64,000 nt of DNA from Longimicrobiales bacterium (GCA_965219445.1 CBDCNQ010000003.1:446098-510097), one strand, 5' to 3'; shown: positions 37,665 to 58,196, counted from the stretch's first letter. Notes: generated by a model from the sequence alone, not told the origin. Translations and numbers: made by a program.

Positions 37665-38717
37665 CTAGTACATCCTGGCCGTATCCAGCAGGTTCATTAA
37701 TGGCTCGTCCGTAAGGTACCGGCGAAGGTTCTCACAGAAGATATCCGTGATTCTTTCGTTCTCACGGTCGCTCGTTCCCGCCGAATGTGCGCAAACGAGC
37801 ACGTTTGGCATCGCCCAAAGCGGGGAGTCTGCGGAAAGAGGCTCCTCCTGGAACACGTCGAGCGCCACCCCTCCGAGGTGACCGGACTCGAGGGCGTCGA
37901 CCAAAGCGGCTTCGTCGACGACGGCGCCACGTGCCACGTTGACGATGATCGCACCCGGAGCGAGCAGTGCGAGTTCGTCCGCCCCTATCATCCCCTCGGT
38001 CTCGGGCGTGTGGGGAACCGCCAACACGACGTGCTCGGCACCACGTAAGGCCTCGTGCAGTTCATCGAGCCCGTAAAGAGCGTTCAGGTGGAGAGCAGCG
38101 GGGTCGACTCCGGTCACGGTCCGTTTCACACCGATGGCCCGCATTCCGAATGCCGACCCCACACGGGCCACTTCTCTGCCGATCGAGCCCATCCCCACCA
38201 CGGCCAGACTTCGCTCCGTAAGGTCGGTCGAAGCGAAAGGCTCCCATCGACGTTCCCCCTGATCCGTGATCATCTCCAGGACTTTTCTCCGAAAAATGAG
38301 GATGGACATCAGTGCGTACTCAGCCAACGGTATTGCATGGACCCCGCTGGCTGTCGTGAATAGAGTTTCGGGCATTCGCTCGGCGTACCGATGCCGGGCC
38401 ACGAGTTGCCCGATCCCTGCGCTCGTGGCCTGGATCCACCTCAGCGAGGGTGCGCGCTCAGGCAGATCCTCGAGGTGAGATCGGTCGAAATCGAACAGGA
38501 TCTCGGCTTCGGAGAGTAGAGACGTCCAACGCTTCTCGTCCTCCTCCGAACGCTCGACCGTGTGCCCCACATGGTCCGCGGCAAATCGGGGCCGCGGAAG
38601 CAGATGAGGCTCGTACGCGACCTGGAGGCGTGGGTTCACCGCGCGAATCCGATCCACATGGTGTGACTCGAGATAACTGGCGATCACTATCGGCACCGGT
38701 TCGAGGGATTCGCTCAT
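37665..38717 (-). CDS. D-2-hydroxyacid dehydrogenase
   Basis: WIQATSAG, GMGSIG, VNVARG, LDVFQEEPL, AHSAG. Confidence 0.9.
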   Translation of the reverse strand: MSESLEPVPIVIASYLESHHVDRIRAVNPRLQVAYEPHLLPRPRFAADHVGHTVERSEEDEKRWTSLLSEAEILFDFDRSHLEDLPERAPSLRWIQATSAGIGQLVARHRYAERMPETLFTTASGVHAIPLAEYALMSILIFRRKVLEMITDQGERRWEPFASTDLTERSLAVVGMGSIGREVARVGSAFGMRAIGVKRTVTGVDPAALHLNALYGLDELHEALRGAEHVVLAVPHTPETEGMIGADELALLAPGAIIVNVARGAVVDEAALVDALESGHLGGVALDVFQEEPLSADSPLWAMPNVLVCAHSAGTSDRENERITDIFCENLRRYLTDEPLMNLLDTARMY

Positions 38718-39694
38718 CAGGGAGCCACCGGATCTCGAAGGTCCTTGATCACACGCATCCCACCGTAGATATACCCCACCCCCACCATTGGAATCAGATA
38801 GCAGACATGTTGAAGCAGGCTCAACGCAAGGGCGTGTTCAGGACTGACGCCCGTGAGCCTGTAAGCAGCAAACGACGCGGCCTCAAACACGCCCAGGTTT
38901 CCAGGAGAGACCGAAACGATGGTTGCGAAGTTGACGCTCGCCAGAACCAGTAAGGCGGTCCCGACCGGTAAATCCAGCCCGAGGGACTGCTGAACCGCGA
39001 GGATTCCCCCGAGCTCAGCGGCCTTCATGCCCAAAGCGAGAGCGATGCCAGCCCCGAACACATGCGGTGTACGTAACCCCTCGAGAGAATGGGCCCACTG
39101 GGCTCCGAAGTGCTGCGCGCGGCCGAGCGCACCGGCTGGCCGTGGAGCATTAGGCGGATGTCGAAAGCGAAAAGAAAGGACAGCGAAAGTCACGCCGAGC
39201 ACCGATACCGCCACCGCGAGCCCTTGGACGCCCCGAGCGAGCCAGGCTGGTAACGGAGCGAACCATGCGACCCCGAGGACGACCACGATCTTGGCGATCC
39301 CTTCGGCCACCTGCTCCATCGTATAAACGGACAGCGCCGAGGCATTGCCGATGCGTCCATACCGAGCCAGAAGCAACACGCCCGAGGCCTGGCCAACCAT
39401 GAACGGAACCGAATTCGAGATCATGGCCATGGCGGAGACCACCAGGAATATGTCTGCCCATGTCACCGAACCCTCACCCGGCACCAGAATCCTCCATTGC
39501 AGCGACCACAAGACAACGATCGACCCGTTGAGAGCGATGGCGACGGCAATCCAGGGTAGGCGGAGGCCCCGTAGGAGCAGGAGGAGCCGGTCCCAATCGA
39601 TGTCCTGCAGGGCAACCGCGAGAAGGAGGGTCGCGCCAACGAGGATTCCACCCCGCAAGAAGGCCGGGCTCCGGGAAGCGAGGCGCGCGGGCAT
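38717..39694 (-). CDS. Lysylphosphatidylglycerol synthase TM-family (flippase-like) membrane protein
   Basis: Polytopic; QWRIL, NSVPFMVG, SPGNLGVFEAA, P+..G motif near the C-terminus. Confidence 0.78.
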   Translation of the reverse strand: MPARLASRSPAFLRGGILVGATLLLAVALQDIDWDRLLLLLRGLRLPWIAVAIALNGSIVVLWSLQWRILVPGEGSVTWADIFLVVSAMAMISNSVPFMVGQASGVLLLARYGRIGNASALSVYTMEQVAEGIAKIVVVLGVAWFAPLPAWLARGVQGLAVAVSVLGVTFAVLSFRFRHPPNAPRPAGALGRAQHFGAQWAHSLEGLRTPHVFGAGIALALGMKAAELGGILAVQQSLGLDLPVGTALLVLASVNFATIVSVSPGNLGVFEAASFAAYRLTGVSPEHALALSLLQHVCYLIPMVGVGYIYGGMRVIKDLRDPVAP

Positions 39695-39708
39695 CTCGAA
39701 GCTCGGCG

Positions 39709-40944
39709 TCAGGCCCGCCGCAGCACCAGGGTGGCGTTCGACCCCCCGAAAGCGAACGAGTTCGAGAGGGCGACCTCGAGCTCCGGAGCATCGCGACCCA
39801 CACCGGCCACGCAGTCGAGATCGCAAGCGGGATCCGGCACCGTCAGGTTGGCGGTTGGCGGGATCCGGCCCTCGTGAAGCGCCAGCGCTGTAATCGCGCA
39901 CTCGAGGGCGCCGGATGCTCCCACGAGGTGTCCATGCATGGACTTGGTCGAACTGACGGCGATGCCCTGGGCCGCGGCCCCGAACGCCCCTTTGATCGCT
40001 TCGATCTCGACCGGATCGCCCGCTGGGGTCCCCGTCGCATGAGCATTGATATAGCCCACTGCATCGGCGGGGAGCCCCGCATCTTCAAGAGCGTTCCGAA
40101 TGGCGCACTCCTGACCGTCCACCGACGGTTCCGTGAGCTTGTGCGCGTCGCTCGAAGCGCCGAATCCGGCGATCTCTGCGAGCAACTCGGCCCCTCGTGC
40201 CGTGGCTCGCTCCTCGCTCTCGAGAATGAGCGTGGCTGCCCCCTCTCCCAGCACGAGGCCGGTACGCTCCAGGTCGAACGGACGACAGGACGCCCTTGCA
40301 CCATCCGCGTGCTCCTTGGCGATCACACCGACAGCCTGCCATGCAGCGACGGACCCGTCGTTGAGCATGGCCTCCGCTCCCCCCGCGATGACCACATCGG
40401 TGTAACCATCCCGGATGGACCTAAAGGCTTCACCGATGGCGACGGATGATGAGGCGCACGCGATCGAGTATGTATGGGCCGGCCCGTAGATTCCGAATTG
40501 CATGCAAACGTGAGAAGCAGGCCCACTGGCCATGATCATAGGGACCGTGGTCGGCCTTCCCCGCCTGGTGCGCCGCTCGAAGTAGATGCTGTAGGAACGT
40601 TGAAGGACTTCGGCTCCTCCAAGCCCGCACCCCATGAACACTCCTGCTTCCTCGGGTCCACGCCCTTCAGACAGGAGACGCGAGTCCTCCAGAGCGTTTC
40701 GGGTGGCGACCACGGCCATTTGTGCCGCCCGCGCCATGAAGAGGCGGTCAACCTTGTTGATTCGGCCGCCAGGCTCAAACTCGATGGAGGCGAGCAGCAC
40801 ATCGGCCCCCATTTCCGGAGTGCCGGATTGGATCATGCGGACGGCAGACTCTCCGCGACAGATCCTCTCGAAGATCGCCGCCGGGTCCTCCCCGTGTGGG
40901 GAAACGAACCCGAGCCCCGTCACGAAGACGCGGCGGCCACGCAT
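39709..40944 (-). CDS. Beta-ketoacyl-ACP synthase (FabF-like) 2
   Basis: SIACASS, YINAHATGT, STKSMHGH, SNSFAFGGSN: intact Cys-His-His triad. Confidence 0.92.
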   Translation of the reverse strand: MRGRRVFVTGLGFVSPHGEDPAAIFERICRGESAVRMIQSGTPEMGADVLLASIEFEPGGRINKVDRLFMARAAQMAVVATRNALEDSRLLSEGRGPEEAGVFMGCGLGGAEVLQRSYSIYFERRTRRGRPTTVPMIMASGPASHVCMQFGIYGPAHTYSIACASSSVAIGEAFRSIRDGYTDVVIAGGAEAMLNDGSVAAWQAVGVIAKEHADGARASCRPFDLERTGLVLGEGAATLILESEERATARGAELLAEIAGFGASSDAHKLTEPSVDGQECAIRNALEDAGLPADAVGYINAHATGTPAGDPVEIEAIKGAFGAAAQGIAVSSTKSMHGHLVGASGALECAITALALHEGRIPPTANLTVPDPACDLDCVAGVGRDAPELEVALSNSFAFGGSNATLVLRRA

Positions 40945-40951
40945 GGGCGGC

Positions 40952-41191
40952 TCAGGCCCCCTGGGCTTGGACGAGTTCCTCCACCAGAGCCGCGGCTTCC
41001 GCAAGCGTCTGAAAGGTGGCGCGCTCCTCGGGAACCTCGATCCCGAATTCGTCCTCAACGTCGAACAGGAGCTCCACGACCGTGAGGGAGTCGAGGCCGA
41101 GCTCGGTCAGCGTCGCCTCTGGTCTGATCGTATTTTGATCGACCTCGTATTTTTCGCTCAACACCTCGGCCAAGAAGGCATAGGGGGTCAC
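40952..41191 (-). CDS. Acyl carrier protein 2
   Basis: LGLDSLTVVELLFDVEDEFGI; SD GGAGG. Confidence 0.93.
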   Translation of the reverse strand: MTPYAFLAEVLSEKYEVDQNTIRPEATLTELGLDSLTVVELLFDVEDEFGIEVPEERATFQTLAEAAALVEELVQAQGA

Positions 41192-41257
41192 GCGCTCACA
41201 CCTCCGAAGAAATAATTCTGTCCCGAAGACATTGAAGACATAATGTACGATCCGACT

Positions 41258-42502
41258 TCATGAGACCATCGCCTTTCGCAGCACCAGCGTCGCATTGCTG
41301 CCACCAAAAGCAAATGAGTTCGTAAGGGCGTACTCCAGGCCCGGCGCCTCTCGGCCGACCAACGGCACGCAATCCAGGTCGCACGCCGGATCGGGATCGG
41401 TGAGGTTCGAGGTGGGAGCGATCCGGCCGGTCTGTAGCGTGCGAACCGTCAACGCGGCCTCCAAGGCGCTCGCGGCACCGATCAGGTGGCCGTGAACCGA
41501 TTTCGTTGAGCTTATAGCCAGCTTGTCGGTGTGCGAGCCGAACGTGTCCCTGATGGCCTCCGCCTCCACTCGGTCTCCCAGGATCGTGCCCGTAGCATGT
41601 GCATTGACATACCCGACACGTTCGTCCGAAACGGCGGCGTCCTCCAGCGCCAGGCGCATGGCACGAGCCTGACCGTCCGGAGAAGGCTCCGTAAGGTTAT
41701 ACGCATCACTGGAGACCCCGTAGCCCACGATCTCTGCCAGGGGCTCGGCACCTCTGGCTCGAGCTGCGCTTTCGCTCTCGAGCACCAGAACAATGGCGCC
41801 CTCCCCGAGCACCAGGCCTGTACGGTGGGTGTCGAACGGCCGGCTTGAAGCTTCGGCTCCGGTCACATGCTCCCTCGCGAGGACGCTCAGTTCCCCCCAG
41901 GCGGCCAGGGTCCCGGCGTTGAGTTGAGCTTCGGCGCCGCCGGCTACGACCGTATCCAGGTAGCCATGTCGAATCGCACGGAACGCCTCGCCGATCGCGG
42001 CGGCAGAGGAGACGCACGCGATGGAATAGGTCACGGTCGGGCCGAAAATTCCATATTGCATGGAGATGTGGGAGGCCGGGCCACTCGCCATGATCATCGG
42101 GGTGGTGGCGGCTCTCAGCCTCCTGGGCGGATTCGCCAAATAACGCTCATAGTGGGCCTGAAGCTCTTCGGAGCCCCCCAATCCACACCCAATGTAAATC
42201 CCCGCCTCTGCCGGTCCGGCGCCGGATACCAACAGGCCTGATCCCTCCAGGGCATGATGCGCGGCGACAACCGCCATCTTGCTGGCCCGTGACATATAGC
42301 GTCCCTGCAGCCTGGGGATCAGGGGGTCGGGGTCGAAGTCGACGGGCGAGAGAAGCATGTCCCTCCTCGACCCGTTGGCTTCGACCTGCACCTTCTGGAT
42401 CGCGGATTCTCCGGCAAAAACCTGATCGAACACCTCGTTCAGGTCGTCCCCGTGAGGAGATACAACGCCGATTCCTGTGATGTACGTGCGGCGCAGGGGC
42501 AC
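41258..42502 (-). CDS. Beta-ketoacyl-ACP synthase (FabF-like) 1
   Basis: SIACVSS, YVNAHATGT, STKSVHGH, TNSFAFGGSN. Confidence 0.92.
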   Translation of the reverse strand: MPLRRTYITGIGVVSPHGDDLNEVFDQVFAGESAIQKVQVEANGSRRDMLLSPVDFDPDPLIPRLQGRYMSRASKMAVVAAHHALEGSGLLVSGAGPAEAGIYIGCGLGGSEELQAHYERYLANPPRRLRAATTPMIMASGPASHISMQYGIFGPTVTYSIACVSSAAAIGEAFRAIRHGYLDTVVAGGAEAQLNAGTLAAWGELSVLAREHVTGAEASSRPFDTHRTGLVLGEGAIVLVLESESAARARGAEPLAEIVGYGVSSDAYNLTEPSPDGQARAMRLALEDAAVSDERVGYVNAHATGTILGDRVEAEAIRDTFGSHTDKLAISSTKSVHGHLIGAASALEAALTVRTLQTGRIAPTSNLTDPDPACDLDCVPLVGREAPGLEYALTNSFAFGGSNATLVLRKAMVS

Positions 42503-42507
42503 GCCGC

Positions 42508-42747
42508 TCAGAGTCCCTTGGCCTCGATCAACTCGTCGGCTAGGGCTGCCGCCTCACCTAGGGTGGAAAAATTAACCTGCTCGGTTGAGAACTTGATACC
42601 GAACTCATCCTCTAATTCCCGCACCATCTCCATCGTGGAAAGGGAGTCCAGGCCCAGACCGGTCGGCGATGCCTCCGGGACCAACTCACCGGCGCTCACG
42701 CCAAATTCCTCCACCAAGAGCTTGACGAGAAAATCATGCGACTTCAA
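42508..42747 (-). CDS. Acyl carrier protein 1
   Basis: TTG start after SD GGAGG; LGLDSLSTMEMVRELEDEFGI. Confidence 0.9.
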   Translation of the reverse strand: MKSHDFLVKLLVEEFGVSAGELVPEASPTGLGLDSLSTMEMVRELEDEFGIKFSTEQVNFSTLGEAAALADELIEAKGL

Positions 42748-42835: not shown

Positions 42836-43855
42836 CTATAGCCAACCTTCCCGTCGGTACCATGCGCCCGTGATCCGTGTTCCCTCGTCGAAGGAAATGC
42901 GAGGTTTCCAGCCAAGCGCGGCTTGCGCTTCCGCTGAGTCGCAAACCCAGTGTGGGGCTAATAACTCGTTCAGCTTGTCCCGTGTCAACATGACCGCACG
43001 TCCCATGACCCTTCCGTAGAGTTCGCTTCCCAGAGCCGCCCCATACATAAAGAAGCGGGGCACCGGAATGCGCAACCAGGCGCGCCTACCGAGCGCGTTT
43101 TCGATGTGGGAAACCAGTCCTCCCAGAGTCTCCAGGCGTCCGTCCTCGACGAAAAATGTAGAGCCGCTAGGCACCTTGGCTTCCAGCGCCTTGATACACG
43201 CAGTCGCGCAGTCGGCGGCGAAGATAGCACTCATCCGGGAACTCGGCGAACCCGTCAAAGGAAGGACGCCCAGCTGTACGGACTTGAAGAAGGGAAGGGT
43301 CTCCCGATCTCGGGGTCCATAGATCATGGGAGGTCTGATGATGGTGATGGAAAGCGAGTCTGCCAGTGCTCGCGCGGCCTGTTCTGCGGCCAGCTTGCTC
43401 CGCCCATAGTGGGTCACGGGATTGGGAGACGCCTCCGCGTGGACGGGACGTCCGTCCTCGCTCGGCCCCATCACCGCCAACGACGAGACCAACACGAAGC
43501 GCCCGATATCCGGAGCATTTTTTTTTGCCGCATGGAGCAGATTAGCAGTCCCCTGCGCGTTCGTCTCGTGGAAGTCGGCGGGCTCCCTGGCCTTCACCAA
43601 ACCAGCGGCGTGGATAATCCCCTCCACACCCTCCGTCGCCGCAAGTAAGCTCGCCTTGTCGCTCATAGCCCCGGACAGAAGTGTCACATGCTCGAGGCCC
43701 TCCAGAAATCGGGTATCACTCGTCGGACGGACCAATGCACGGACCTCGGCACCCTGTTGATCGAGTTGCTCGGCAATATGAGAGCCGAGAAATCCCGAGG
43801 CTCCGGTCAGCAAGATTCGCAAAGACTTTCGTCCCCTCTTGGGCTGATCGTCCAA
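42836..43855 (-). CDS. Extended-SDR NAD(P)-dependent reductase; putative ceramide/3-oxo reductase (CerR-like)
   Basis: TGASGFLG, HAAG, VSSLA, YGRSK, RPPMIYGPRD; directly downstream of spt. Confidence 0.72.
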   Translation of the reverse strand: MDDQPKRGRKSLRILLTGASGFLGSHIAEQLDQQGAEVRALVRPTSDTRFLEGLEHVTLLSGAMSDKASLLAATEGVEGIIHAAGLVKAREPADFHETNAQGTANLLHAAKKNAPDIGRFVLVSSLAVMGPSEDGRPVHAEASPNPVTHYGRSKLAAEQAARALADSLSITIIRPPMIYGPRDRETLPFFKSVQLGVLPLTGSPSSRMSAIFAADCATACIKALEAKVPSGSTFFVEDGRLETLGGLVSHIENALGRRAWLRIPVPRFFMYGAALGSELYGRVMGRAVMLTRDKLNELLAPHWVCDSAEAQAALGWKPRISFDEGTRITGAWYRREGWL

Positions 43856-43900: not shown

Positions 43901-45124
43901 TCAGATCACCCCGAGCTTCCTACCAGCGCTTCGGAGGGCTTCGAGGCCTCGATCGAGATGTTCGCCTTCATGGGTGGCCATGTAGCTGGTACGCAATAAG
44001 GAGTGACGTGGCCGCACGCCCGGCGAGATAAATGGGTTCGTGTACACGGAGTGATCCTCCAGTAGCGTCCTCCAAAACTCCAGCGTCCGCGAATTATCCC
44101 GAATGTAGATCGGGATTATGGCACTCTCGGTGTCACTCAACTCGAAGCCCATCCCCGCGAGCTCGTCCTTCATGTAGCTGTAATTCTCCCTCAACTTTTC
44201 AATTCTCCAGGTCTCTTCTTGCATCACGTCGAATGCGGCCATTGCGGCCGCGATACTGGACGGTGCGCCACTGGCCGCGAACATGAAAGAAGGTGCAAAA
44301 TGCCTGATGTAATCCAGAACCTTGCGCTCTCCGACGAGATACCCGCCGACACTGGCCAGGGATTTGCTGAAGGTGCCTCCGATCAGGTCGACCTCACCCT
44401 CCAATCCGAAGTAATGCGCAGTGCCGCGGCCCCCCGGTCCGGTCACTCCGAACGCGTGCGCGTCGTCCACGAAAAGTCTCGCCCCATGCTCCTTGATTAC
44501 CGGAACGAGATCGTCGAGCCTCGCGATATCCCCCTCGACGCTGAACACGCCATCCGTCATCACGAGTGCGCATTCATCGGTGTTGAGCTTGGAGAGAGCG
44601 CGGTCCAAAGAAGCCGCCACGTTGTGCCTGAACCGAACCATGCGCCCGCCCGATGCCTGGCCCAGCCGTACGCCGTCGTAGATCGACGCATGCACACTCC
44701 GGTCGAGCACGGCGACGTTGTTCTCCCCGCCGAGCAAGGCGGAGCCTACGGCGAGGTTCACTTGATAACCCGTGGTGAAGACGAGTGCGGACTCTCTCCC
44801 ATAGAATGAGGCGATTTTCTCTTCGAATTCGCCATGCAGCATCATGGATCCATTCACAAAGCGAGAACCCGTCATGCTCGTTCCGAACCTGGCGATGGCG
44901 GCGACTGCCGCTTCCCGGACCTTGGGGTGCGTCGTCAGGCCCAAGTAGTTGTTCGAACCGAACATCGTCACACGCTTGCCGTCGATCACGGCCTCGGGTC
45001 CGTCGTTGTAGTCGAAAGGCTTGAAATACGGGTAGACGCCCGCCTTCCTGGCGTCGTCCGCAGCTCGGAACGTGAACGCCTTGCTCAAAACATCGGACGC
45101 GAGATCGGAGGCGCTTTCAGACAC
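43901..45124 (-). CDS. spt: Serine palmitoyltransferase (alpha-oxoamine synthase)
   Basis: YPYF, MFGSNNYLGL, GSRFVNG, TTGYQVN, HASIYDG, DDAH, GTFSKSLAS; clustered with ACPs, CerR-like and bCerS-like genes. Confidence 0.82.
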   Translation of the reverse strand: MSESASDLASDVLSKAFTFRAADDARKAGVYPYFKPFDYNDGPEAVIDGKRVTMFGSNNYLGLTTHPKVREAAVAAIARFGTSMTGSRFVNGSMMLHGEFEEKIASFYGRESALVFTTGYQVNLAVGSALLGGENNVAVLDRSVHASIYDGVRLGQASGGRMVRFRHNVAASLDRALSKLNTDECALVMTDGVFSVEGDIARLDDLVPVIKEHGARLFVDDAHAFGVTGPGGRGTAHYFGLEGEVDLIGGTFSKSLASVGGYLVGERKVLDYIRHFAPSFMFAASGAPSSIAAAMAAFDVMQEETWRIEKLRENYSYMKDELAGMGFELSDTESAIIPIYIRDNSRTLEFWRTLLEDHSVYTNPFISPGVRPRHSLLRTSYMATHEGEHLDRGLEALRSAGRKLGVI

Positions 45125-48055: not shown

Positions 48056-48066
48056 AAGCTCCTCTA

Positions 48067-48434: not shown

Positions 48435-48595
48435 CTGGGTTCACGGGTCCTGAAATTCGGTCCGCCTGGAATCTCAGAGACACCGCTTGCTGAAGCAACG
48501 CCCGCGCCGCAGGTACGACCCCCGAAGGGCAAAGCCGGTCGTTCACTGGCTCGGCCAGTGCTATACTCAACGGTGGAGAGGATTCCAGTAAGGCC

Positions 48596-50479
48596 ATGTT
48601 CCATTCGAGCGCCCACGAGCGGATGACTGCACCGGATAAGGAGACGCAAGCAACGCCCCTCGGCGTCCTCCGCTGCTACTGGCGGGTGGTCGACGCCAAG
48701 GTGTGGCACCTGGCCGTACCGATGGGCATGATCCTGCTCGCAAGCGCCTTCGAAGGGGCCTCATTCTCACTTCTCATCCCGCTCAAGGACGCGGTGGTGG
48801 CGAACTCCTTCGACTTCCTGGAGAGGTCGAGAGGCTTCGGATGGATTCTATGGCTCGTGCCGGACGGTCTGGACCCGTCGGCTCGAGACGCCTACCTCGT
48901 GCTCTGCATCGCCGTCCTGATCATTCTCGGTCGAATAGGGAAGCTGGCACTCCAATACGCTACCCGGCTCGTCGTGACGGCGCGCAACGAACGGTACCGG
49001 GTCAAGGTTGGCAGGGAGACGTTCGGGAGGGTTCTCGTGTTCGGACGGCAGTACTTCGACGGCCAGGCGATCGGGAGAATCGATGCGGAGATCGGGTGGT
49101 CCAGCTCCGTGCTCGGCCTGTTGATCGCGGCTCAGGAGCTCTTCCGTTACGTGGTCTCACTGCTCGTGAAGGCCGGCGTGATGGTGGCGATCTCAATCCC
49201 GCTCTCGATCGCCTTCATCGTGACTCTTCCGTTGGTGCAACGTCTGGTGGCCGCGGTCAATCGGACGGTGAAGCGTATCTCCGAAGAGGGTGTCGAGGTG
49301 GACCGGCAGATCCGCGCACAGATCCTCGACCTGCTGGCGACGATTCCGCTCGTAAAAGCATACTCGCAGGAAGAGACCGCTTCGGGGATGTACGAAGAGG
49401 TTCTCCACGAGGGGGAGAGCGTGGCGGTTCGGCGTGAGCGGGCCATCGGCATTCGCTATCCCATCGAGGAAATCACGATCCTCCTTGCGATGCTCCTCGT
49501 GCAGGGCGTGTTCATCTATGCGACTGGGGATTTTCGCCCGGCCGACCTGGCTGTTTTCGGTGCCTTTCTCATCGTCCTTCAGCAGGCACTTCGTGACTAC
49601 AAGTTGATCAGCCGTTTCAGCCTCCGCGTCTTTGAAGAACTCCCTCGCTTGGAAGCCGTGGCCGGACTCTTTTCTGACGAGGGCAAGTTCATCGTGCCCT
49701 CCGGTGAGAAGGGTTTTGGAGGGCTCGAGCACCAGATCGAGGTCTCCCATCTCAACTTCCGCTACGCGCAAGCAACTGCTGAGGCGCTGCACGACCTGAA
49801 CACGACGATCGCCGCCGGTAAAGTCACTGCTATCGTGGGCTCCAGTGGAGCGGGTAAGACGACATTCGTCGATCTCCTCGCGCGCTTCTACGACTGCGAA
49901 CCCGGCACGATCCTCCTCGATGGCACCGACATCCGGGAGTACTCCCTCTCGTCGCTGCATTCCCGCATGGCGATCGTCAGCCAGGACGTTTGGCTATTGA
50001 ACCGATCCTTGCGCGACAATCTCACGTTTGGGCTCGAACGGACCGTGCCCGACAAGGAATTGGCCCAGGCCCTCGCCGATGTCGAACTGGACGACTTGCT
50101 CGAAGACCTTCCGAGCGGCCTCGACACGGAGGTGGGGGATAGGGGAGTTCGGCTATCTGGGGGACAGCGGCAGCGCATCGCGCTCGCTCAAGCGCTCCTA
50201 CGAGATCCGAACATCGTGATTCTCGACGAGGCGACCTCCGCGCTGGACAGCGTGATCGAGCAGGGCGTGGCGGAGGCGATCAAGAGGCGGCTGAGCGGAC
50301 ACACCCTCATCGTGATCGCACATCGACTGTCCACTATCCGGGACGCGGACCTAATTCTCGTATTCGAGGGCGGCCACATCGTCGAGCACGGCATCTGGAA
50401 TGAGTTGATCGAACGTGGCGGGGCCTTTTACGAACTCTATCGGGCTCAATCCGAGAAGGACACACCGGTCGGAGCTTGA
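48596..50479 (+). CDS. MsbA/PglK-like ABC exporter (TMD+NBD)
   Basis: Six-TM-like N-terminal half; GSSGAGKT, SQD, LSGGQRQR, LDEATSALD, IAHRLST. Confidence 0.92.
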   Translation: MFHSSAHERMTAPDKETQATPLGVLRCYWRVVDAKVWHLAVPMGMILLASAFEGASFSLLIPLKDAVVANSFDFLERSRGFGWILWLVPDGLDPSARDAYLVLCIAVLIILGRIGKLALQYATRLVVTARNERYRVKVGRETFGRVLVFGRQYFDGQAIGRIDAEIGWSSSVLGLLIAAQELFRYVVSLLVKAGVMVAISIPLSIAFIVTLPLVQRLVAAVNRTVKRISEEGVEVDRQIRAQILDLLATIPLVKAYSQEETASGMYEEVLHEGESVAVRRERAIGIRYPIEEITILLAMLLVQGVFIYATGDFRPADLAVFGAFLIVLQQALRDYKLISRFSLRVFEELPRLEAVAGLFSDEGKFIVPSGEKGFGGLEHQIEVSHLNFRYAQATAEALHDLNTTIAAGKVTAIVGSSGAGKTTFVDLLARFYDCEPGTILLDGTDIREYSLSSLHSRMAIVSQDVWLLNRSLRDNLTFGLERTVPDKELAQALADVELDDLLEDLPSGLDTEVGDRGVRLSGGQRQRIALAQALLRDPNIVILDEATSALDSVIEQGVAEAIKRRLSGHTLIVIAHRLSTIRDADLILVFEGGHIVEHGIWNELIERGGAFYELYRAQSEKDTPVGA

Positions 50480-52237: not shown

Positions 52238-52987
52238 CTACCTGTCGAGGTAGTCGTCGATCTGGGCCTGGACCCCGAGAAGCTGTACGGCCTCACGTGT
52301 GAACCAAGAGCGATAGGACCTGTGGGCCATCTTACCCGGGTCATCAAGAGGCGCTTCCGTCCTGGAAATACTGCCACGGTGCATTCGCCACACGTTCTTG
52401 AAGGGAAGGTCGTAGGCGCGGGGTAGGGTGCCCGATTCCCGAATCGACAGGAGGGAAAGGAAGATGTCCTCCCCGTTCCATTTGGGCGAACCCCGTGCGA
52501 TCAACTCAGCCGCGGATGGCTCAGCTTCGAGGAATACGTCAGCGTAGGAACGGTGCATCATGAGGCAGCGAGTCAGAACCACCGGTGCCTCCCCCCGCTC
52601 ATATCCGTCGTACGAGTATTCGTAAGCCCTACTGATGCGACGTCCAAAGATCCCGTGCAACGTGTATGGTGCTTGGTCAAACAGGGACTTGAGCGCCGTG
52701 ATCGAGCGTCGGGGCACGACCAGGTCGTCATCCACGATCAATACGGCATCGTTCCTCGCTTCCCTCGCTGCGACGAACCGCAGGGCGAGCCCATAGCGAT
52801 CGTTGAGATCCCAATCATGACGATGGATGATCTCACAGCGGGGGGTGTTGTACGAAAAGCACGCCTTCTCACGCCCGTGAGAGACGTGAATCTCATCGAC
52901 GAGGGGATGCCGGGCGAGCAACGGCAGGATCACGCGGCGCAACCACGCCGGACGATTCCAATTCAGGACGACTACGCTGACGTTCAC
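52238..52987 (-). CDS. GT64-like (EXTL2-type) glycosyltransferase
   Basis: LALRF...NDAVLIVDDD, LHGIFGR, VVLTRCLMMHRSY, NGEDIFLS, H..YRS. Confidence 0.68.
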   Translation of the reverse strand: MNVSVVVLNWNRPAWLRRVILPLLARHPLVDEIHVSHGREKACFSYNTPRCEIIHRHDWDLNDRYGLALRFVAAREARNDAVLIVDDDLVVPRRSITALKSLFDQAPYTLHGIFGRRISRAYEYSYDGYERGEAPVVLTRCLMMHRSYADVFLEAEPSAAELIARGSPKWNGEDIFLSLLSIRESGTLPRAYDLPFKNVWRMHRGSISRTEAPLDDPGKMAHRSYRSWFTREAVQLLGVQAQIDDYLDR

Positions 52988-53943
52988 GGTCCTTCCTGTC
53001 GCTCGAATTCGGAGACGTCGGGATAATATGCGTCGAGAAACTCACCCACCCGCTCGAGCACCCAGGGATCGGGATCCGCTCCCTGGTCATCGTTGAGACA
53101 ATAAAACTTGGGCCGCATCTCCACGAGCGCGTCCAACGCTCGATGCTGCTCTTCTCGGGCATTGTCGATCCGATGAAAGCGGTGGTACTGAAGCAGTTCG
53201 CGTGCCTTTACCGCCTCGGCGTGTCGCCGCTTCGGACCGAGCATCCACATCCGGTAAAGTCGATCCATGCGTAGATCCGATCCGGCCCGGAAGCGGCTAC
53301 TGCGAGTCCGATGCAACGCCTTTCGATTGGCCTCCAACATGGCCTCCCAAAACGGTTTGTAGATGAATCGAGGGCAGTGCTCGAGATGAACGGTGCTGAA
53401 GAGCTTCCATCGTTTTCGATAGATGCGGAATGGAAGCCAGATCCCAAAGTAGGTCCCGAAAACCCTCTGTTTCCCCTTGGCCGTCAAGAAATCCTCTCGA
53501 ACCGTGGGAGCTCCGAAGAGAAAATCGTCGTTCAGATAGAGGAAGTGGTCCGAGAGACCAGGGACCGCATGAACGAAGCTTTCGATCGCCGTCGAGTTGA
53601 ACGTCGGTAGGTAGGGGGCGAAGCCACTCAATTCGTCGTGGTGGACGACATTGACTCTTGGATTGCTCAGGTCGAGCCACCGCGGGACCTGAGGGCGACG
53701 CGTGATGATGTGGACATTTCTGATCCAACCCGCGAACATCGCCACCGACCGGAGGCTATACCGCAATAGATCATACAGGTCGCGAGTACGCTCCGGGTTG
53801 AGGTGGTCCGGGCCCGCCGCGTAGTGGCGCATGTCCGCGTGAAGCTGTGGGTCTTCTCCATCGACCCAGGCATAGACGAGATCGACTTCTGGCGTGCCCT
53901 CGGGCACACTTCCAGGTTTACTCCTCTGTGAGGTCATCTCCAC
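52984..53943 (-). CDS. Stealth family hexose-1-phosphate transferase
   Basis: CR1 VDLVYAWVDGED; CR2 LRYSLRSV..W, LPTFNSTAIE, FLYLNDDF; CR3 HCP; CR4 FYCLND. Confidence 0.92.
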   Translation of the reverse strand: MEMTSQRSKPGSVPEGTPEVDLVYAWVDGEDPQLHADMRHYAAGPDHLNPERTRDLYDLLRYSLRSVAMFAGWIRNVHIITRRPQVPRWLDLSNPRVNVVHHDELSGFAPYLPTFNSTAIESFVHAVPGLSDHFLYLNDDFLFGAPTVREDFLTAKGKQRVFGTYFGIWLPFRIYRKRWKLFSTVHLEHCPRFIYKPFWEAMLEANRKALHRTRSSRFRAGSDLRMDRLYRMWMLGPKRRHAEAVKARELLQYHRFHRIDNAREEQHRALDALVEMRPKFYCLNDDQGADPDPWVLERVGEFLDAYYPDVSEFERQEGP

Positions 53944-54070
53944 AACGTCACTTCAGGCCTGCGAGGTCGTTGGGCGAACGACAGGATTCTCATGGTCAAC
54001 CAAGTTGCTAATCTTCCACGGGAACTCCAACATTCGCTTCTCGGAACAGGCTCACGTTCGTCACCCATCC

Positions 54071-54823
54071 ATGATCATATCTCATAGCCATAAGTTCATA
54101 TTCCTCAAGCCCCGCAAGGTCGCGGGCACAAGCGTCGAGGTCGCGCTTGCACAGCACTGTGGAGAAGATGACATCATCACTCCGATCGGTGCGTTCGACG
54201 CCAGGTGGGACGAGGACCAGTACGCCCATCCGGGGAGGAAATGGCGCGGCTACGGTCGTCACGCGACCCTGAAGCGGGTCCGAAAGAAGCTCGGCCCAGA
54301 GATGTGGGACGATTATTTCAAATTCACCATCACTCGTAACCCGTGGGATCTGGTGGTGTCGCAGTACCACTGGGCGACCCGGATGGACGATGGGGACCCC
54401 TACCAATGGTCCGTTGGGAGGACCTTGAAGCGGTTCTGGAAGAACCCCACCCGCGTGAGGAAGAATTTCAGGGAACTCGGTACGAACCTGGCCCGGACAC
54501 TCCTGAGAACGGATGTGGTCTCGTTCGATTTCTTCGTTAGGCACATGTTGCGCTATTATGAGCCCAATGATCCGTTCTACTTCGACCGTTCGGGCTCGGT
54601 GAGCCTCGACTTTCTCATCCGTTGCGAAGATCTCCAGGGTGACTACACCCTGGTCTGCGAGCGGCTCGGACTACCCACAACGGATCTCCCGTCTCTGAAA
54701 ACGAAGGCCAGACAGGAGCGACAGCATTATTCGGCGTACTACGATGATCGAACAAGAGAACTCGTAGCCAAGATGTATCATCGTCACATCGAGCACTTCG
54801 GATACCGTTTTGAAGAACCTTGA
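54071..54823 (+). CDS. Sulfotransferase family 2
   Basis: MIISHSHKFIFLKPRKVAGTSV, YFKFTITRNPWDLVVSQY, YSAYYD, FGYRF. Confidence 0.88.
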   Translation: MIISHSHKFIFLKPRKVAGTSVEVALAQHCGEDDIITPIGAFDARWDEDQYAHPGRKWRGYGRHATLKRVRKKLGPEMWDDYFKFTITRNPWDLVVSQYHWATRMDDGDPYQWSVGRTLKRFWKNPTRVRKNFRELGTNLARTLLRTDVVSFDFFVRHMLRYYEPNDPFYFDRSGSVSLDFLIRCEDLQGDYTLVCERLGLPTTDLPSLKTKARQERQHYSAYYDDRTRELVAKMYHRHIEHFGYRFEEP

Positions 54824-54870
54824 TGCCTTCTCTTCTCTGTTGAGCGCTTGACGAGGGCTCACCCACTCCC

Positions 54871-55818
54871 TTGTTTCCGACCCTGCTGATAGCGGGGGCG
54901 CTCAGCGTCGCCGGATACGGCTTGTTTTGCCGGCTGGAGGGCCGACAGCCCGCCCGTGAGATTCTGTATGAGCTCGCACTGATGCGGCGTGACCTCCGCG
55001 ATCTCGATGCCAAAGCTGCCGCGAGGGAGCCGTCGGACCTCGTCGTCGGCCTCACGACCATTCCGAGCCGCCTTCCGTTGTTGCAGCCGACGCTCAAGAG
55101 TCTGCTTCTTCAGAACGCGCCCCCTCGGAAGATCCTGCTTCATCTGCCGACCTACAGTCGCCGCGAACAGGTCGAGTACTCGATCCCCGAAGAGCTCAAA
55201 GAGCTCGAAGTCATTCAGATCATCCGCTCTCCGGACTGGGGACCAGCTACCAAGATCTTGCCGGCACTCCTCGACAGTGATCCGGATCAGCGCGTGGTCG
55301 CGGTGGACGACGACCGTATATACCGGCCCACACTACTCTCGGATCTTCTAGAAGCCTCTGAGCACCATCCAGACGCCGCGGTAGGCTGTTTCGGCCTCAT
55401 CGTTCCCGTGGACCGAATCGACCGCCGACGAGGGCTCGTGGGCCGAACCATCGACGGCCTGCGGTACGGGCGTGGGGTCTCGCTGCGAGGCTCTCGCCTG
55501 CGTCGCCCTCTTCCGGTGGATATCCTTCATGGGTACGGAGGGGTACTGGTTCGCCCACGTTTCTTTGATCTCGAACGCCTGGCGGACCTCGACGGTGCGC
55601 CTGACGCGGCCTGGCTGGAAGACGATACCTGGTTCGCCGCTCACTGCCGGGTGCCGAAGCTGATTGTACCGAACAGCCCCGGGAGCTTCCCGCGCTACTT
55701 TGCCGGAGGCGTATACAGCGGCAGCAGTTTGGGAGTTCACAACCGTGGTGGTGTCGATCCCGAAAGCCGAAACACTACGGTGCTGATGCGTACCTTTAGC
55801 GATCGGTGGATGCCTTGA
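54871..55818 (+). CDS. Membrane-anchored GT-A glycosyltransferase-like protein
   Basis: N-terminal TM; VVGLTTIPSRL, DWGPATKILP, VAVDDD, GYGGVLV, EDDTWF. Confidence 0.72.
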   Translation: MFPTLLIAGALSVAGYGLFCRLEGRQPAREILYELALMRRDLRDLDAKAAAREPSDLVVGLTTIPSRLPLLQPTLKSLLLQNAPPRKILLHLPTYSRREQVEYSIPEELKELEVIQIIRSPDWGPATKILPALLDSDPDQRVVAVDDDRIYRPTLLSDLLEASEHHPDAAVGCFGLIVPVDRIDRRRGLVGRTIDGLRYGRGVSLRGSRLRRPLPVDILHGYGGVLVRPRFFDLERLADLDGAPDAAWLEDDTWFAAHCRVPKLIVPNSPGSFPRYFAGGVYSGSSLGVHNRGGVDPESRNTTVLMRTFSDRWMP

Positions 55819-55820
55819 GC

Positions 55821-56738
55821 ATGGCGCCCGCAACCTTCATCGTCGGGCATCCGCGCTCTGGCACGAGTCTGCTACGGGCGCTGCTGGACAGTCATCCCGA
55901 CCTCCTCGTGATCCCCTTCGAGACACATCTGTTCGACTGGGCCAAGTCTCCAGATCCGGTCACCACCCTACTCGACCGGACTCGGCTTTGGCCCACGCTT
56001 CACCGCCACCGGCCATCCATCTCGAAAGATGAAGTCGGGGACGTCCTCAGACGTGCATTCAGTCAGGCGCTCGACCCACGGACGCGATTGCTCGCCCTGG
56101 TGGAGGGGTGGCGCGAACTCACAGGCGTGCGCCAAGAAACCCGGTGGGTGGAGAAAACCCCTCGTCATCTGTACGAGTCCAACACCCTCCTGAAATGGTT
56201 TCCAGCTGAAGCGAGGGTCCTCGTGATGCGCCGGGATCCTCGGGACGTCATCGCCTCGGTCCTCAAACAGAACCCCTCGCGCCCCCTATTTCAGATGGCG
56301 CTCACGGGGCGGCTCGCCCATCAGGTCCTGATCGAGCACGAGCCGGATCCACGCTTCTTGGTGGTCGGTTATGAAGGACTAGTGCGGGACCCTGCTAGTA
56401 CCATGAGGACGGTTTGTCAGTTTCTCGATATTCCGTACGACCCCGTGGTCGTTACGCCCACCGTTCTTGGGGCGGAGTACTCCGGAAACTCCCGATTCGA
56501 CTCTACGCTCCAAGGTGTCTCCGAGTCAGGGGTGGGCCGTTACCGCGATATCCTCTCGGGGGCTCGGCTGGAACGGACCGAGGCCCTTCTTGCTCCGGTC
56601 CTTTCGGCGGGGGGCTATACTCCGACACTCACGAGCTCTCGGAGCCGTCACCCGATCGCGAGGGCGGCCATCACAATGATTGTTTGGTCGGGACTCTGGC
56701 GCTCACGCGCCCTGAGAGCCGCCTTCGGAGGGGCTTGA
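55821..56738 (+). CDS. Sulfotransferase (Sulfotransfer_1/3-type)
   Basis: FIVGHPRSGTSLL, WVEKTP, RDPRDVIAS, YEGLVRDP. Confidence 0.9.
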   Translation: MAPATFIVGHPRSGTSLLRALLDSHPDLLVIPFETHLFDWAKSPDPVTTLLDRTRLWPTLHRHRPSISKDEVGDVLRRAFSQALDPRTRLLALVEGWRELTGVRQETRWVEKTPRHLYESNTLLKWFPAEARVLVMRRDPRDVIASVLKQNPSRPLFQMALTGRLAHQVLIEHEPDPRFLVVGYEGLVRDPASTMRTVCQFLDIPYDPVVVTPTVLGAEYSGNSRFDSTLQGVSESGVGRYRDILSGARLERTEALLAPVLSAGGYTPTLTSSRSRHPIARAAITMIVWSGLWRSRALRAAFGGA

Positions 56739-56739
56739 G

Positions 56740-57543
56740 ATGGCGATCGCAGTCCATTCGTCCGAGCCGACCTTTTTGTTCTTCTGGAATCACAAAGTCG
56801 CGTCCCGGTCCATCCTCAACGCTCTCCAGGAGTCCTTTCCCGGTCTCCGCGTACACGCCCAACCATCCTTCCGTCCGCCAGTCCAAGACCAAGACTGGCC
56901 CCGCTTCTTGGTGGTCCGCAGCCCATGGGCCAGGGCGGCATCTTGCTACCGGAACAAGTGCCGCAGCGCGATGGAGGCCTTGGAGCGGAATGGCGGTCTG
57001 GAGCCCTGCCAGCGCCATCTGCTCCGTGAGCTCGGAGCATGGCCCTGTCGGTCGCTCACAGGGGCACGCCGATTGGTCGAACTCGATTTCGCGGAATTCG
57101 TGGGGCTGCTGCCCGGCATCCGTGACGGGAACAGCCACTTCCGTCTGCAAGTCGACGTACTTCGCGACGCGGGTTCGATCACGTCCAGAATCCCTTGGGC
57201 TGAACGCGCAACCCGGACCCTCCTTCACTTGGGCCGGACCCACTACCTGATGCCACGGCCGTTAAAAACCCGACCGACGCTAGCAGCCGACCAGGCTGCC
57301 TTGGTGGCGGCACGAAAACAGTCCGTGCGGTCGATTCGCCTGGAAGACCTCCCTGAAGCATGGGGGAGGGTCGAGCAGGCCTTGGGCCGAGCGATTCCAC
57401 TTCCCTGGCACGCGCGGACAGCCCAAGGAGACGACTGGCGGACGCTCTACGACGCGACACTCCAAGCACAGGTGGCCGACCTCTATCGGCCGGACTTGGA
57501 AATGTTCGGATATGACGAGTGGGCACGGCCTCAGAACGTATAG
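56740..57543 (+). CDS. Sulfotransferase family 2
   Basis: WNHKVASRSI, VVRSPWARAASCY, HFRLQ, YRPDLEMFGY. Confidence 0.85.
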   Translation: MAIAVHSSEPTFLFFWNHKVASRSILNALQESFPGLRVHAQPSFRPPVQDQDWPRFLVVRSPWARAASCYRNKCRSAMEALERNGGLEPCQRHLLRELGAWPCRSLTGARRLVELDFAEFVGLLPGIRDGNSHFRLQVDVLRDAGSITSRIPWAERATRTLLHLGRTHYLMPRPLKTRPTLAADQAALVAARKQSVRSIRLEDLPEAWGRVEQALGRAIPLPWHARTAQGDDWRTLYDATLQAQVADLYRPDLEMFGYDEWARPQNV

Positions 57544-58196
57544 CCGAATCGTTCGATATCCGCCTCGTAGAGCGTCCCGACGAGTTCACGAGTCTCGTCG
57601 TCATAATACGCCCGATGGCTGCCGCGATATCGGCCTCGGCCGGTGCGTGGGACACGGTGTGGAAGTGGCACACCCAACCCCTCGAGAAGCGGCGGAAGAC
57701 GGCTCTCGATCTCCTCGAGCTTGATCACCTCGTCCACGAGTGGCCGGCCGGCCTCATCTCCGGCAAAGCCGGCGAAGGAAAACGCCCCGGAGCGAATCAC
57801 GCTCGCGTCCAACCCAGGCGCCCCAGCGCCACGACCCTCGGGATCGAGGGTACGTACCCAGGCCCGGAAGCCCCGGTGACGCGTGGCTCGCCTTCTCAGT
57901 CGGGAGAGCTGGCCTCCCTCGCGGAAGGAGAACATCTCATAAAGCGACACCAAGCGGCTCCACGGATTCCTCACCATCACGAACTTGAAGTAGCCGTCGA
58001 AGTCCCAACCCCGTGAGGCGAAGACATCGCGAAGCTCCACCGGACGCATATGATTGTAGAACGGGAACTCCGCGGTAAGCTCTTCCGCGGGCCGGCCGTG
58101 GATCTCGGAGTGGGCGTCGAGAAGCCGACGGACCGACCTCGAGCCTGTCTTCGGACTCGCGAAGAACACGAATTGGTGTCGATGGGAGATGCGCAT
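57531..58196 (-). CDS. Sulfotransferase family 2
   Basis: MRISHRHQFVFFASPKTGSRSV, YFKFVMVRNPWSRLVSLY, DIERFGYTF. Confidence 0.9.
   Translation of the reverse strand: MRISHRHQFVFFASPKTGSRSVRRLLDAHSEIHGRPAEELTAEFPFYNHMRPVELRDVFASRGWDFDGYFKFVMVRNPWSRLVSLYEMFSFREGGQLSRLRRRATRHRGFRAWVRTLDPEGRGAGAPGLDASVIRSGAFSFAGFAGDEAGRPLVDEVIKLEEIESRLPPLLEGLGVPLPHRVPRTGRGRYRGSHRAYYDDETRELVGTLYEADIERFGYTF

Follow-up and report, generated by a model that had tools for sequence, protein, structure and literature searches.

A conserved gene cluster of Longimicrobiales as a candidate for the synthesis of a glycosylated and sulfated inositol-phosphoceramide-like lipid

Introduction

Glycosylated inositol-phosphoceramides (GIPCs) are described as plant and fungal lipids in the available part of PMC12992377. 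In yeast, Aur1 acts first and Csg1 (Sur1)/Csh1 then act on the inositol-phosphoceramide (IPC), according to the accessible sections of PMC11993586, and the plant GT64 enzymes GMT1 and GINT1 act on GIPC (PMC12992377, same part). For bacteria, the passages at hand mention either unglycosylated IPC only, in Bacteroides, or other head groups, in Caulobacter, and those of PMC9246714 describe neither glycosylation nor sulfation of the Bacteroides IPC. Here we report on a gene cluster in a stretch of 64,000 nucleotides (G000:C3:446098-510097, hereafter the window) from a Longimicrobiales bacterium of the Gemmatimonadota, the genome of which (G000) comprises 4.56 Mb and is 92% complete. The cluster joins genes for ceramide synthesis to genes for glycosyltransferases, sulfotransferases and an ATP-binding cassette (ABC) exporter. 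We put at roughly 0.5 the probability that this cluster, together with an unlinked Aur1-type gene, makes a glycosylated and sulfated IPC, that is, a GIPC-like lipid, which is predicted to be flipped to the cell surface.

Results

The minus strand of the cluster encodes, in this order, a Sulfotransfer_4-family sulfotransferase (st1), a GNAT acyltransferase, a GT32 glycosyltransferase, an oxoamine synthase, an SDR epimerase/reductase, an acyl carrier protein (ACP), a FabF, a second ACP, a second FabF and an LPG_synthase_TM protein. The divergent side holds an MsbA/HepA-type ABC exporter, a 562-aa protein, a GT64-like and a Stealth protein, a GT-A glycosyltransferase with a DDD motif and four more sulfotransferases, three of which belong to Sulfotransfer_2 and one to Sulfotransfer_3 (Table 1). 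Every open reading frame (ORF) that had been named in a first-pass annotation of the window was found with the place, strand and order given there.

The ceramide core proposed in that annotation, consisting of spt, a bCerS-like gene, a CerR-like gene and dedicated ACPs, is backed by best-hit tests. As a proxy for the Caulobacter ceramide genes, the orthologues in the five-gene cluster of E. coli were searched against G000; E. coli yghO is the orthologue of the N-acyltransferase gene CC_1154, and an epimerase gene that of the reductase gene (PMC9386255, in the portion available). The best genome match of E. coli Spt was the oxoamine synthase of the window (39% identity, E 2e-72), that of the epi gene product was the window reductase (30%, E 2e-31, with the runner-up at 2e-15), and YghO matched the window GNAT (32%, E 2e-52) and nothing else in G000. 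The PDB search with the oxoamine synthase likewise ranked Spt (E 2e-105) before Kbl (1e-59) and BioF (8e-50), and its NCBIfam score for SerpalmtaseCFB was 448 bits, below the cut-off of 640. With the GNAT, the PDB sequence search gave chance matches only, and no NCBIfam model matched. As judged by family membership, the spt, GNAT and reductase genes of the window very probably form a ceramide core. Of the 61 genomes of the order, 44 had a GNAT match with E ≤ 0.001, some of these matches being weak, and the reductase-spt-GNAT triad recurs in the other families sampled (G050, G051 and G060). It follows that ceramide genes as such are common in the order and that the cluster stands out by the decoration.

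No orthologue of an AasR-type acyl-ACP synthetase was found in the cluster, the best match in the genome lying elsewhere and showing 25% identity. Two ACP-FabF pairs are present, which arose by tandem duplication (the FabFs being 60% and the ACPs 46% identical). Both ACPs carry a GLDS motif and are about 40% identical to the other ACP of the genome. This FabF subfamily occurs in 15 of the 61 genomes and adjoins a bCerS-like gene in G034, G026, G164 and G657; no bCerS-like neighbour was seen in the stretches examined of G031, G021 and G027, and a plasmid search with FabF gave generic matches only (about 41%). We infer that the subfamily supplies dedicated acyl-ACPs in the stead of AasR.

The next question concerns the sugar that would be added to this core. 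The GT32 protein was modelled as a GT-A fold with a terminal helix (pLDDT 92), for which Och1 was the closest fold. Over 211 aa, it is 39% identical to a protein of Paraphelidium that bears the annotation putative mannosylinositol-phosphoceramide (MIPC) synthase; its identity to a chytrid protein is 40%. In a tree of 50 rows, a quick one without bootstrap that was built from cropped sequences, included 20 of the 47 generic loci and lacked yeast Sur1, the query and 12 bacterial relatives joined 16 eukaryotic or unnamed rows (SH-aLRT 99). The resulting clade of 29 rows, one of which is annotated as MIPC synthase, was separate from the 21 other bacterial GT32s, and the motif Gx[ST]WxxxD was present in 28 of its 29 rows and in none of those 21. 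No Sur1/Csh1 chain was among the PDB matches of the GT32, and its ESM Atlas matches were giant-virus and rotifer clusters, none of them informatively named. A scan of the genome contigs returned 48 GT32 loci outside the genus, 47 of which are distant GT32s, and neither spt nor GNAT was seen in the examined flanks of any of the 48. Generic GT32s are thus not tied to sphingolipids.

The earlier proposal that the GT32 and one sulfotransferase, st1, are linked to the ceramide core is borne out by gene overlap and by synteny. The GNAT and st1 genes overlap at a GTGA and the GT32 and GNAT genes at an ATGA, so that st1, GNAT and GT32 form a chain of overlapping codons, and st1 and GT32 are kept in all nine relatives that have the block. 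A comparison of synteny across metagenome-assembled genomes (MAGs), which the first-pass annotation had asked for, showed that 9 of 11 genomes of the genus have the complete st1-GNAT-GT32-spt-reductase-ACP-FabF block, which 10 metagenome loci of the genus type also keep up to the ends of their contigs. The PDB sequence search with st1 gave chance matches only and no informative relative.

Since Sur1-type and plant GT64 enzymes act on IPC, genes for IPC synthesis were sought across the genome. An Aur1-type PAP2_3 gene is located at G000:C3:207846-208775. The sole PDB matches of its product were yeast Aur1 (E 8e-14), with the common motifs AAPPWY, FGAxPSLH and HHYxxD, and its sole NCBIfam match was the Bacteroides-type phosphoinositol dihydroceramide synthase (NF052609). 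Strong matches to the Aur1-type gene were found in 10 of the 61 genomes, which are the identical set to the holders of the GT32, and two more genomes matched weakly; among 401 genomes of the phylum, it was strong only in G000, G005 and G504. A MIPS gene (G000:C4:560522-561856) scores over the Pfam cut-off and is adjoined by a CDP-alcohol transferase gene (to C4 562514), whose top three NCBIfam matches are inositol-phosphate lipid synthases, all below cut-off. MIPS being present in 57 of the 61 genomes, this PIPS-like neighbour in G000 suggests that inositol lipids are general in Longimicrobiales. No sphingomyelin-synthase-type PAP2_C gene was found in the genome. The first-pass analogy to enzymes that decorate IPC is strengthened by the Aur1-type synthase and the inositol-lipid genes, because these lie beyond the window on which it was based. 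G007 has three copies of the Aur1-type gene (C3:64651, C6:10116 and C6:221437), two of them with identical scores, which may represent a duplication or an assembly repeat. The Aur1-type gene of G000 and a PAP2_3 gene of G164 each adjoin xanthine-dehydrogenase-family genes, but paralogues blur orthology here and this was not used as evidence.

The ABC exporter gene is located immediately upstream of the conserved block in eight of the nine genomes (one copy is partial, and the ninth contig ends earlier). Copies that are 48% identical lie near spt in G034 and immediately upstream of spt in G657. The presumed link of the exporter to spt is therefore upheld by a proximity that is kept in three genera, one of which has another set of glycosyltransferases. 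In all six relatives with enough contig, the exporter is flanked by GT64 and Stealth; the content past Stealth varies. The GT64-like protein is a distant family member (sole PDB match EXTL2, E 0.014), and of 251 genomes of the order just two, which belong to the genus of G000, gave a strong match to it. The PDB matches of Stealth were 7dxi, CpsY (8j2n) and GlcNAc-1-phosphotransferase chains. The GT-A protein has 33-38% identical homologues near members of the GT32 subfamily in two metagenome loci (L182 and L202).

All five sulfotransferases of the window keep an N-terminal motif that we take to be PAPS-loop-like. They match Sulfotransfer_1/2/3/4 only, and none matches the galactose-3-O-sulfotransferase model, which leaves the suggested analogy to sulfatides without family support. 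Among the four relatives that reach the TPR gene at the right border, st3 was found in three, the GT-A and st4 genes in one each and st5 in none; at 55% identity or more, st5 was absent from the loci of nine relatives and from 10 metagenome loci. Because four of the five sulfotransferases come and go among relatives, the multiple sulfation that had been put forward is not constant. The supply of 3'-phosphoadenosine 5'-phosphosulfate (PAPS) can be attributed to a Sat-CysC gene in the capsule locus of G000, and one more weak Sulfotransfer_3 match lies elsewhere in this genome. In three of the four relatives, the slot of st4/st5 is occupied by a Cys-containing protein of 312 aa that has no Pfam or NCBIfam match and is absent from G000. 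An asparagine-synthetase-like ORF with a weak match (E 0.023) is located in the variable slot of the cassette in G004 (L029:1407-2597).

The 562-aa protein appears to be a Wzi-like outer-membrane barrel, as its top three ESM Atlas matches are all Wzi-family clusters (0.98). Its gene was found inside the cluster in two of the six relatives with enough contig, its orthologue was in a capsule locus in three others, and none was found in G001 and G004. The barrel is therefore not essential to the composition of the cluster. A Wzi-family gene is also present in the spt cluster of G034 and next to the GT32 of G219.

Related loci outside the genus show how far the parts of the system travel together. 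The GT32 subfamily is present at full length in 3 more of the 401 genomes (G164, G219 and G225) and also in G597, and all four contain a bCerS-like gene together with a PAP2_3 gene that exceeds the cut-off. In G164, PAP2_3, GT32, deacetylase and flippase-like genes follow one another, and then FabF, ACP, TPR, GT4 and bCerS-like genes, all within 12 kb; PAP2_3 abuts GT32 at no more than 9 kb from the bCerS-like, ACP and FabF genes, and the bCerS-like protein is 66% identical to that of the window. As in G164, a flippase-like gene follows the GT32 in G597 and in the metagenome loci L188-L190. In a metagenome survey of this subfamily, in which 80 of 552 loci were kept, GT32 was near Spt in four loci (L182-L184 and L186) that probably represent one lineage. 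One of these, the soil-type L182 (620-20640), encodes an ACP, an acyl-AMP ligase, Spt, two Wzy_C proteins, DUF2079, GT87 and GT32, followed by a PlsY-like protein, a fused LptF/G, GT4s, a deacetylase and the GT-A homologue. No bCerS-like gene was seen in L182, where an alternative N-acyltransferase could be encoded by the PlsY-like gene. No ceramide genes were seen near the GT32 in L187, L201 and the own GT32 loci of G219 and G225.

The cluster of G034 contains, ahead of an spt with 68% identity, Wzi, GT4/GT2 genes, the ABC gene and more glycosyltransferase genes, and from spt on a reductase, an ACP-FabF pair, a bCerS-like gene, a GT1-like gene and a second FabF-ACP pair. The combination of ABC and ceramide genes with an entirely different glycosyltransferase set in G034 and another set in G657 indicates that one chassis carries different glycan cassettes. 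A second PAP2_3 subfamily often accompanies the bCerS-like genes of the order: of 14 genomes with a strong match, 12 have it at most 1.3 kb from the bCerS-like gene, and a head-group transfer to ceramide thus looks regular in the pathway of this order. This subfamily has the motifs FPVQGPRY/AFPSSH, is the usual neighbour of spt-bCerS(-CerR) in Longimicrobiales (G038, G040, G044, G046, G048, G050, G052, G054, G058, G060, G022, G025 and G597; for example L175:3578-7823 and L174:6885-10373), and is a candidate for a new ceramide head-group transferase. In a further set of loci (L261:3183-18733 in G219, L262 in G225, L268 in G026, and L190), bCerS-like, HAD, flippase-like, deacetylase, GT4, PAP2_3 and GT22 genes are joined. 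The GT22 proteins belong to the Alg9/GPI-mannosyltransferase family, the G219 locus adjoins serine-synthesis genes, and a GPI-like glycolipid pathway is possible for these loci.

Regarding the borders of the cluster, the run does not end at position 38717, where the first-pass annotation had placed its end, since a 2-hydroxyacid dehydrogenase gene overlaps the stop codon of the flippase-like gene (TGATG) and is followed by an amidohydrolase gene. These two genes (35756-38717, minus strand) prolong the run in all eight relatives with a contig reaching that far. The TPR protein at the right border has 35% identical homologues close to bCerS-like genes in G164, G219 and G225. The G+C content is 61% in each half of the cluster compared with 62% for the whole window, there is no shift in G+C content, and no tRNA or tmRNA gene was found in the window. 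A recent foreign insertion was thereby ruled out, and the term 'island' used in the first-pass annotation holds in the sense of a clade-restricted cluster and not in that of a recent foreign insert. The eight nearest GT32 relatives (77-89% identity) are from MAGs titled Gemmatimonadota, Longimicrobiales or UBA6960. Likely true start sites are 47126 for GNAT (382 aa), 45981 for GT32 (231 aa), 40944 for FabF2, 39694 for the flippase-like gene and, from 77-aa matches, 42741 for ACP1. The divergent st1 and ABC genes are separated by 540 bp (48056-48595), compared with about 220-250 bp in relatives, and an ORF of 177 aa inside this intergenic region that has no family match is probably spurious. 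A gene for an FkbM-family methyltransferase (61404-62186, minus strand) lies in a stretch of low G+C content (about 54%) and was unmatched in the examined loci of the relatives.

Table 1. Features of the cluster and of related loci. Positions are counted from the first nucleotide of the window unless a locus is named.
Feature	Coordinates	Strand	Remarks
2-Hydroxyacid dehydrogenase	37665..38717	-	Coupled to the run via TGATG overlap; 8/8 relatives with contig that far
Flippase-like membrane protein (LPG_synthase_TM)	38717..39694	-	Pfam E 4.9e-32
FabF-like ketosynthase 2	39709..40944	-	Cys-His-His motifs intact
Dedicated ACP 2	40952..41191	-	PP-binding; 46% identity to ACP1
FabF-like ketosynthase 1	41258..42502	-	Cys-His-His intact; 60% to FabF2, 40% to other FabF of genome
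Dedicated ACP 1	42508..42741	-	PP-binding; GLDS motif; 88-96% identity in 9 relatives
CerR-like SDR reductase	42836..43855	-	Best G000 match of E. coli epi gene; Rossmann and YxxxK motifs
Serine palmitoyltransferase (Spt)	43901..45124	-	Best PDB matches Spt 8guh/3a2b; best genome match of E. coli Spt
GT32, MIPC-synthase-like subfamily, C-terminal helix	45286..45981	-	Pfam E 1.4e-18; DxD motif; GT-A fold model
bCerS-like GNAT N-acyltransferase, 382 aa	45978..47126	-	Sole G000 match of E. coli YghO; single copy in genome
st1, Sulfotransfer_4-family sulfotransferase	47123..48055	-	Pfam E 1.7e-13; KTGTT motif; 9/9 relatives with block
MsbA/HepA-type ABC exporter, predicted glycolipid flippase	48596..50479	+	NCBIfam HepA 378, MsbA 339 bits, both below cut-off
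Wzi-like outer-membrane barrel, accessory, 562 aa	50546..52234	+	Pfam Wzi only E 0.061; Atlas 0.98
GT64-like glycosyltransferase	52238..52987	-	Pfam E 1.6e-12; 6/6 relatives with enough contig
Stealth sugar-1-phosphate transferase	52984..53943	-	CR1-CR4 all present; GTGA overlap with GT64; 6/6 relatives
st2, Sulfotransfer_2, variable	53894..54823 (start may be 54071)	+	Pfam E 6.4e-12; 3/6 relatives, remnant in G007
GT-A glycosyltransferase resembling KfiA/heparosan GlcNAc transferase, variable	54871..55818	+	1/4 relatives reaching TPR gene
st3, Sulfotransfer_3, variable	55806..56738	+	Pfam E 1.2e-27; 3/4 relatives reaching TPR gene
st4, Sulfotransfer_2, variable	56740..57543	+	Pfam E 3.9e-5; 1/4 relatives
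st5, Sulfotransfer_2	57531..58196	-	Pfam E 7.9e-11; G000 only, among the genomes examined
TPR protein, right border	58390..59268	+	4/4 relatives reaching that far
Ceramide and ABC chassis loci	L274:7847-18729, L266:1-15187 (G034); L276:1365-10809 (G657)		Several ORFs without Pfam match
Conserved 312-aa protein	L023:8813-9754 (-), L025:11821-12759 (-), L022:2619-3539 (+)		

Discussion

The genes, motifs, synteny and distributions described above are observations, and the enzyme activities in the following scheme are those that we infer from them. Loading and elongation of dedicated acyl chains would fall to the two ACP-FabF pairs, which would thereby replace AasR. Spt would then join serine to one chain, bCerS would N-acylate the product and CerR would reduce it, which is very likely in view of the families assigned by proxy. 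It is likely, though less so, that MIPS and PIPS provide phosphatidylinositol phosphate and that the Aur1-type enzyme transfers phosphoinositol to the ceramide. It is somewhat more likely than not, judging from its subfamily, that GT32 puts the first alpha-linked sugar, presumably mannose, on the inositol. For GT64 and Stealth, which would lengthen the head with alpha-linked N-acetylhexosamine (HexNAc) or hexose and with sugar-1-phosphate, we see the balance as even, and we are equally divided about a finish by the strain-variable GT-A and sulfotransferases with PAPS from the Sat-CysC of the capsule locus. Finally, the MsbA/HepA-type exporter would flip the completed glycolipid, with the Wzi barrel as an accessory.

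Several observations weigh against a glycosylated and sulfated IPC as the product. The Aur1-type gene is unlinked, being about 277 kb from the cluster, and its 155 bits are far below the NCBIfam cut-off of 480. Its co-occurrence with GT32 amounts to one gain in a clade and hence a single event, and the genomes G003 and G009, which lack both genes, are more distant (MIPS identity 87-88% compared with 91-94%) and 81% and 85% complete. PAP2_3 genes are common, 9 of 14 control genomes having one that exceeds the cut-off, and those linked to GT32 or bCerS elsewhere belong to the second subfamily, with 24-27% identity to the Aur1 type. No PgpA-type phosphatidylinositol phosphate (PIP) phosphatase was found (no PF04608 match in the 92% complete genome; other phosphatase families were not searched). 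The GT32 tree is a quick one, lacks bootstrap and yeast Sur1, and its eukaryotic rows were picked as hits of the query; an automatic name of the IPC-mannosyltransferase type was attached to only 2 of the 19 distinct clusters looked up. Members of the GT32 subfamily occur without spt in the DNA examined at L049, L170, L171, L187 and L201, the flippase-like gene is absent from the G002 locus, and in G632, where spt and ACP/FabF are present, neither an ABC nor a bCerS gene was seen within the 50 kb examined. Lastly, there is a matter of topology. The active sites of PAP2/Aur1 enzymes face away from the cytoplasm, and the outer face of the inner membrane may be the site at which IPC arises. The glycosyltransferases of the cluster have no signal peptide or membrane span in a hydropathy scan and appear to be cytoplasmic, so that IPC would have to be flipped inward before it could be glycosylated.

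The alternative that survives best, although we regard it as unlikely, is that two products are made, the left operon producing a small sphingolipid (ceramide, IPC or a mono-glycosylated or sulfated form) and the right cassette a separate sulfated, heparosan-like or phosphodiester-linked capsular polymer with another anchor. Indeed, the right cassette is variable and divergently transcribed, with four of the five sulfotransferases and the GT-A differing in presence between relatives. The closest fold of the GT-A is KfiA (E 9e-7), followed by the heparosan synthase PmHS2, for a model of low confidence (pLDDT 55), and Stealth matches the exopolysaccharide phosphotransferase CpsY. PAPS and Wzi genes are part of a capsule locus in several genomes; in G005, G007 and G011, a Wzi orthologue (78-80% identity) is located in a Wzy/Wza-type capsule locus beside sulfate-activation genes, adjoining Sat-CysC. 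In addition, generic GT32s lie beside Sulfotransfer_2 genes without spt in two cyanobacterial loci (L059 and L071). However, Wzx, Wzy, Wza, Wzc and a priming transferase are all absent from the ORFs of the cluster, the capsule-type export and sugar-supply genes of G000 forming a separate locus on C4. Moreover, the ABC orthologue stays close to spt in three genera though the cassette changes, and the GT64 gene that flanks it with Stealth in all relatives with enough contig is strong only in this genus among the 251 genomes. The right-hand enzymes would suit a short sulfated HexNAc or phosphodiester glycan, anchored on ceramide or elsewhere. Because polymerase and priming genes are lacking and the exporter is linked to spt, a ceramide anchor is favoured over another anchor, and the right-hand cassette may act on ceramide.

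A second alternative does without inositol in the head. GT32 would then act directly on ceramide or on phosphatidylinositol, or Stealth would make a ceramide-phosphate-sugar link, and the Aur1-type gene would make an unrelated phosphoceramide. The distance of the Aur1-type gene and the missing PIP phosphatase are in line with this, and so is the related chassis of G034, where no PAP2_3 match was found and a GT1-like gene lies beside bCerS instead; the presence of MIPS throughout the order makes phosphatidylinositol a possible acceptor for GT32. Nevertheless, this alternative appears improbable in view of the apparent grouping of GT32 with MIPC-synthase-like proteins, its direct contact with PAP2_3 in G164, and the presence of PAP2_3 and bCerS-like genes in all four outside genomes with the subfamily that were checked. 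Least probable is a headless lipid, in which the synthase uses alanine and the FabF pairs produce very-long-chain acyl groups, to which st1 adds sulfate: sulfate-1-deoxyceramides with C32-C39 acyl chains do exist as orphan Black Sea lipids whose genes are not known (PMC11334938, main text in part), and two extra ketosynthases and st1 do sit in the Spt operon, but Aur1 or a glycosyltransferase would find no C1 hydroxyl on a 1-deoxyceramide, so that this reading gives no account of GT32 and the Aur1-type gene, the top PDB matches are serine-using Spts, and the part of PMC11334938 at hand, which is without its supplement, gives no link between this clade and the Black Sea lipids.

With a glycosylated and sulfated IPC as the preferred product, the ceramide core of the first-pass annotation and the linkage of GT32, st1 and the exporter to it are retained, and the Wzi barrel as a part of the system, the multiple sulfation and the likeness to sulfatides are weakened. 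More tentatively, and with less conviction than for the product itself, we propose that Longimicrobiales have a modular surface glycan anchored on a sphingolipid, in which a ceramide chassis of Spt, bCerS, CerR and ACP-FabF and an MsbA-type flippase carry swappable cassettes in the manner of O-antigen loci. In this clade, the cassette would build the first bacterial mannosyl- or glycosyl-IPC, extended via sugar-phosphate and sulfated, with GT32s that are sister to eukaryotic MIPC synthases. If true, small self-contained enzymes would become available for reactions that are difficult to investigate in eukaryotes, sphingolipids would have another export route besides the Lpt paralogues, and there would be candidate genes for the sulfated sphingolipids that are still orphans. 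The producers of environmental GIPC-like lipids would then be assigned differently, and the bacterial GT32 subfamily would bear on the origin of MIPC synthase.

In the literature that could be searched, which excludes most subscription papers, we found no bacterial MIPC or GIPC pathway and no bacterial ceramide pathway linked to sulfotransferases. Likewise, no study of sphingolipids in Gemmatimonadota was found, the supplement of PMC11334938, which possibly names this phylum, lying outside the part covered. To the extent that the following papers were available, the cluster most resembles the bacterial ceramide pathway of Caulobacter and E. coli BL21 (PMC9386255, PMC11087976 and PMC11324152), with which it shares Spt, a YghO/CC_1154-type acyltransferase, an epi/CerR-type reductase and a dedicated ACP. 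It differs from this pathway in having two ACP-FabF pairs instead of AasR, and an MsbA-type ABC exporter and a glycan and sulfate cassette instead of Cpg kinase/phosphoglycerate genes and LptF2/G2, which are absent from the ORFs of the cluster. The pathway for phosphoinositol dihydroceramide in Bacteroides thetaiotaomicron (BT_1522-1526; PMC9246714) has MIPS, PIPS-like and Aur1-like genes in common with the present system, but here these genes are scattered and a PgpA-type phosphatase was not found. The likeness to the fungal route from IPC to MIPC (PMC11993586) lies in the motifs of the Aur1 catalytic region and, going by the quick tree, in a GT32 of the MIPC-synthase-like clade, whereas the host is a bacterium, the GT32 is a short protein with a C-terminal helix as its only one, and GT64, Stealth and sulfotransferase genes are additional. 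With the plant GIPC pathway (PMC12992377) it shares a GT64-domain protein in a predicted inositol-sphingolipid pathway, the GT64 match being distant, but plants put glucuronate on IPC first, whereas here GT32 is the predicted first transferase. Finally, glycans flipped by MsbA, PglK or HepA and the Wzi/group 1 or heparosan capsules resemble the cluster in a half-size ABC protein, a Wzi-like barrel, Stealth and KfiA-like transferases and a swappable cassette; in contrast to these, the cluster lacks a polymerase, a co-polymerase and an undecaprenyl priming enzyme, and its exporter travels with ceramide genes. Altogether, this is a conserved gene system that has apparently not been described before, the parts of which are of known kinds and whose union in a bacterium was not encountered in the searchable literature.

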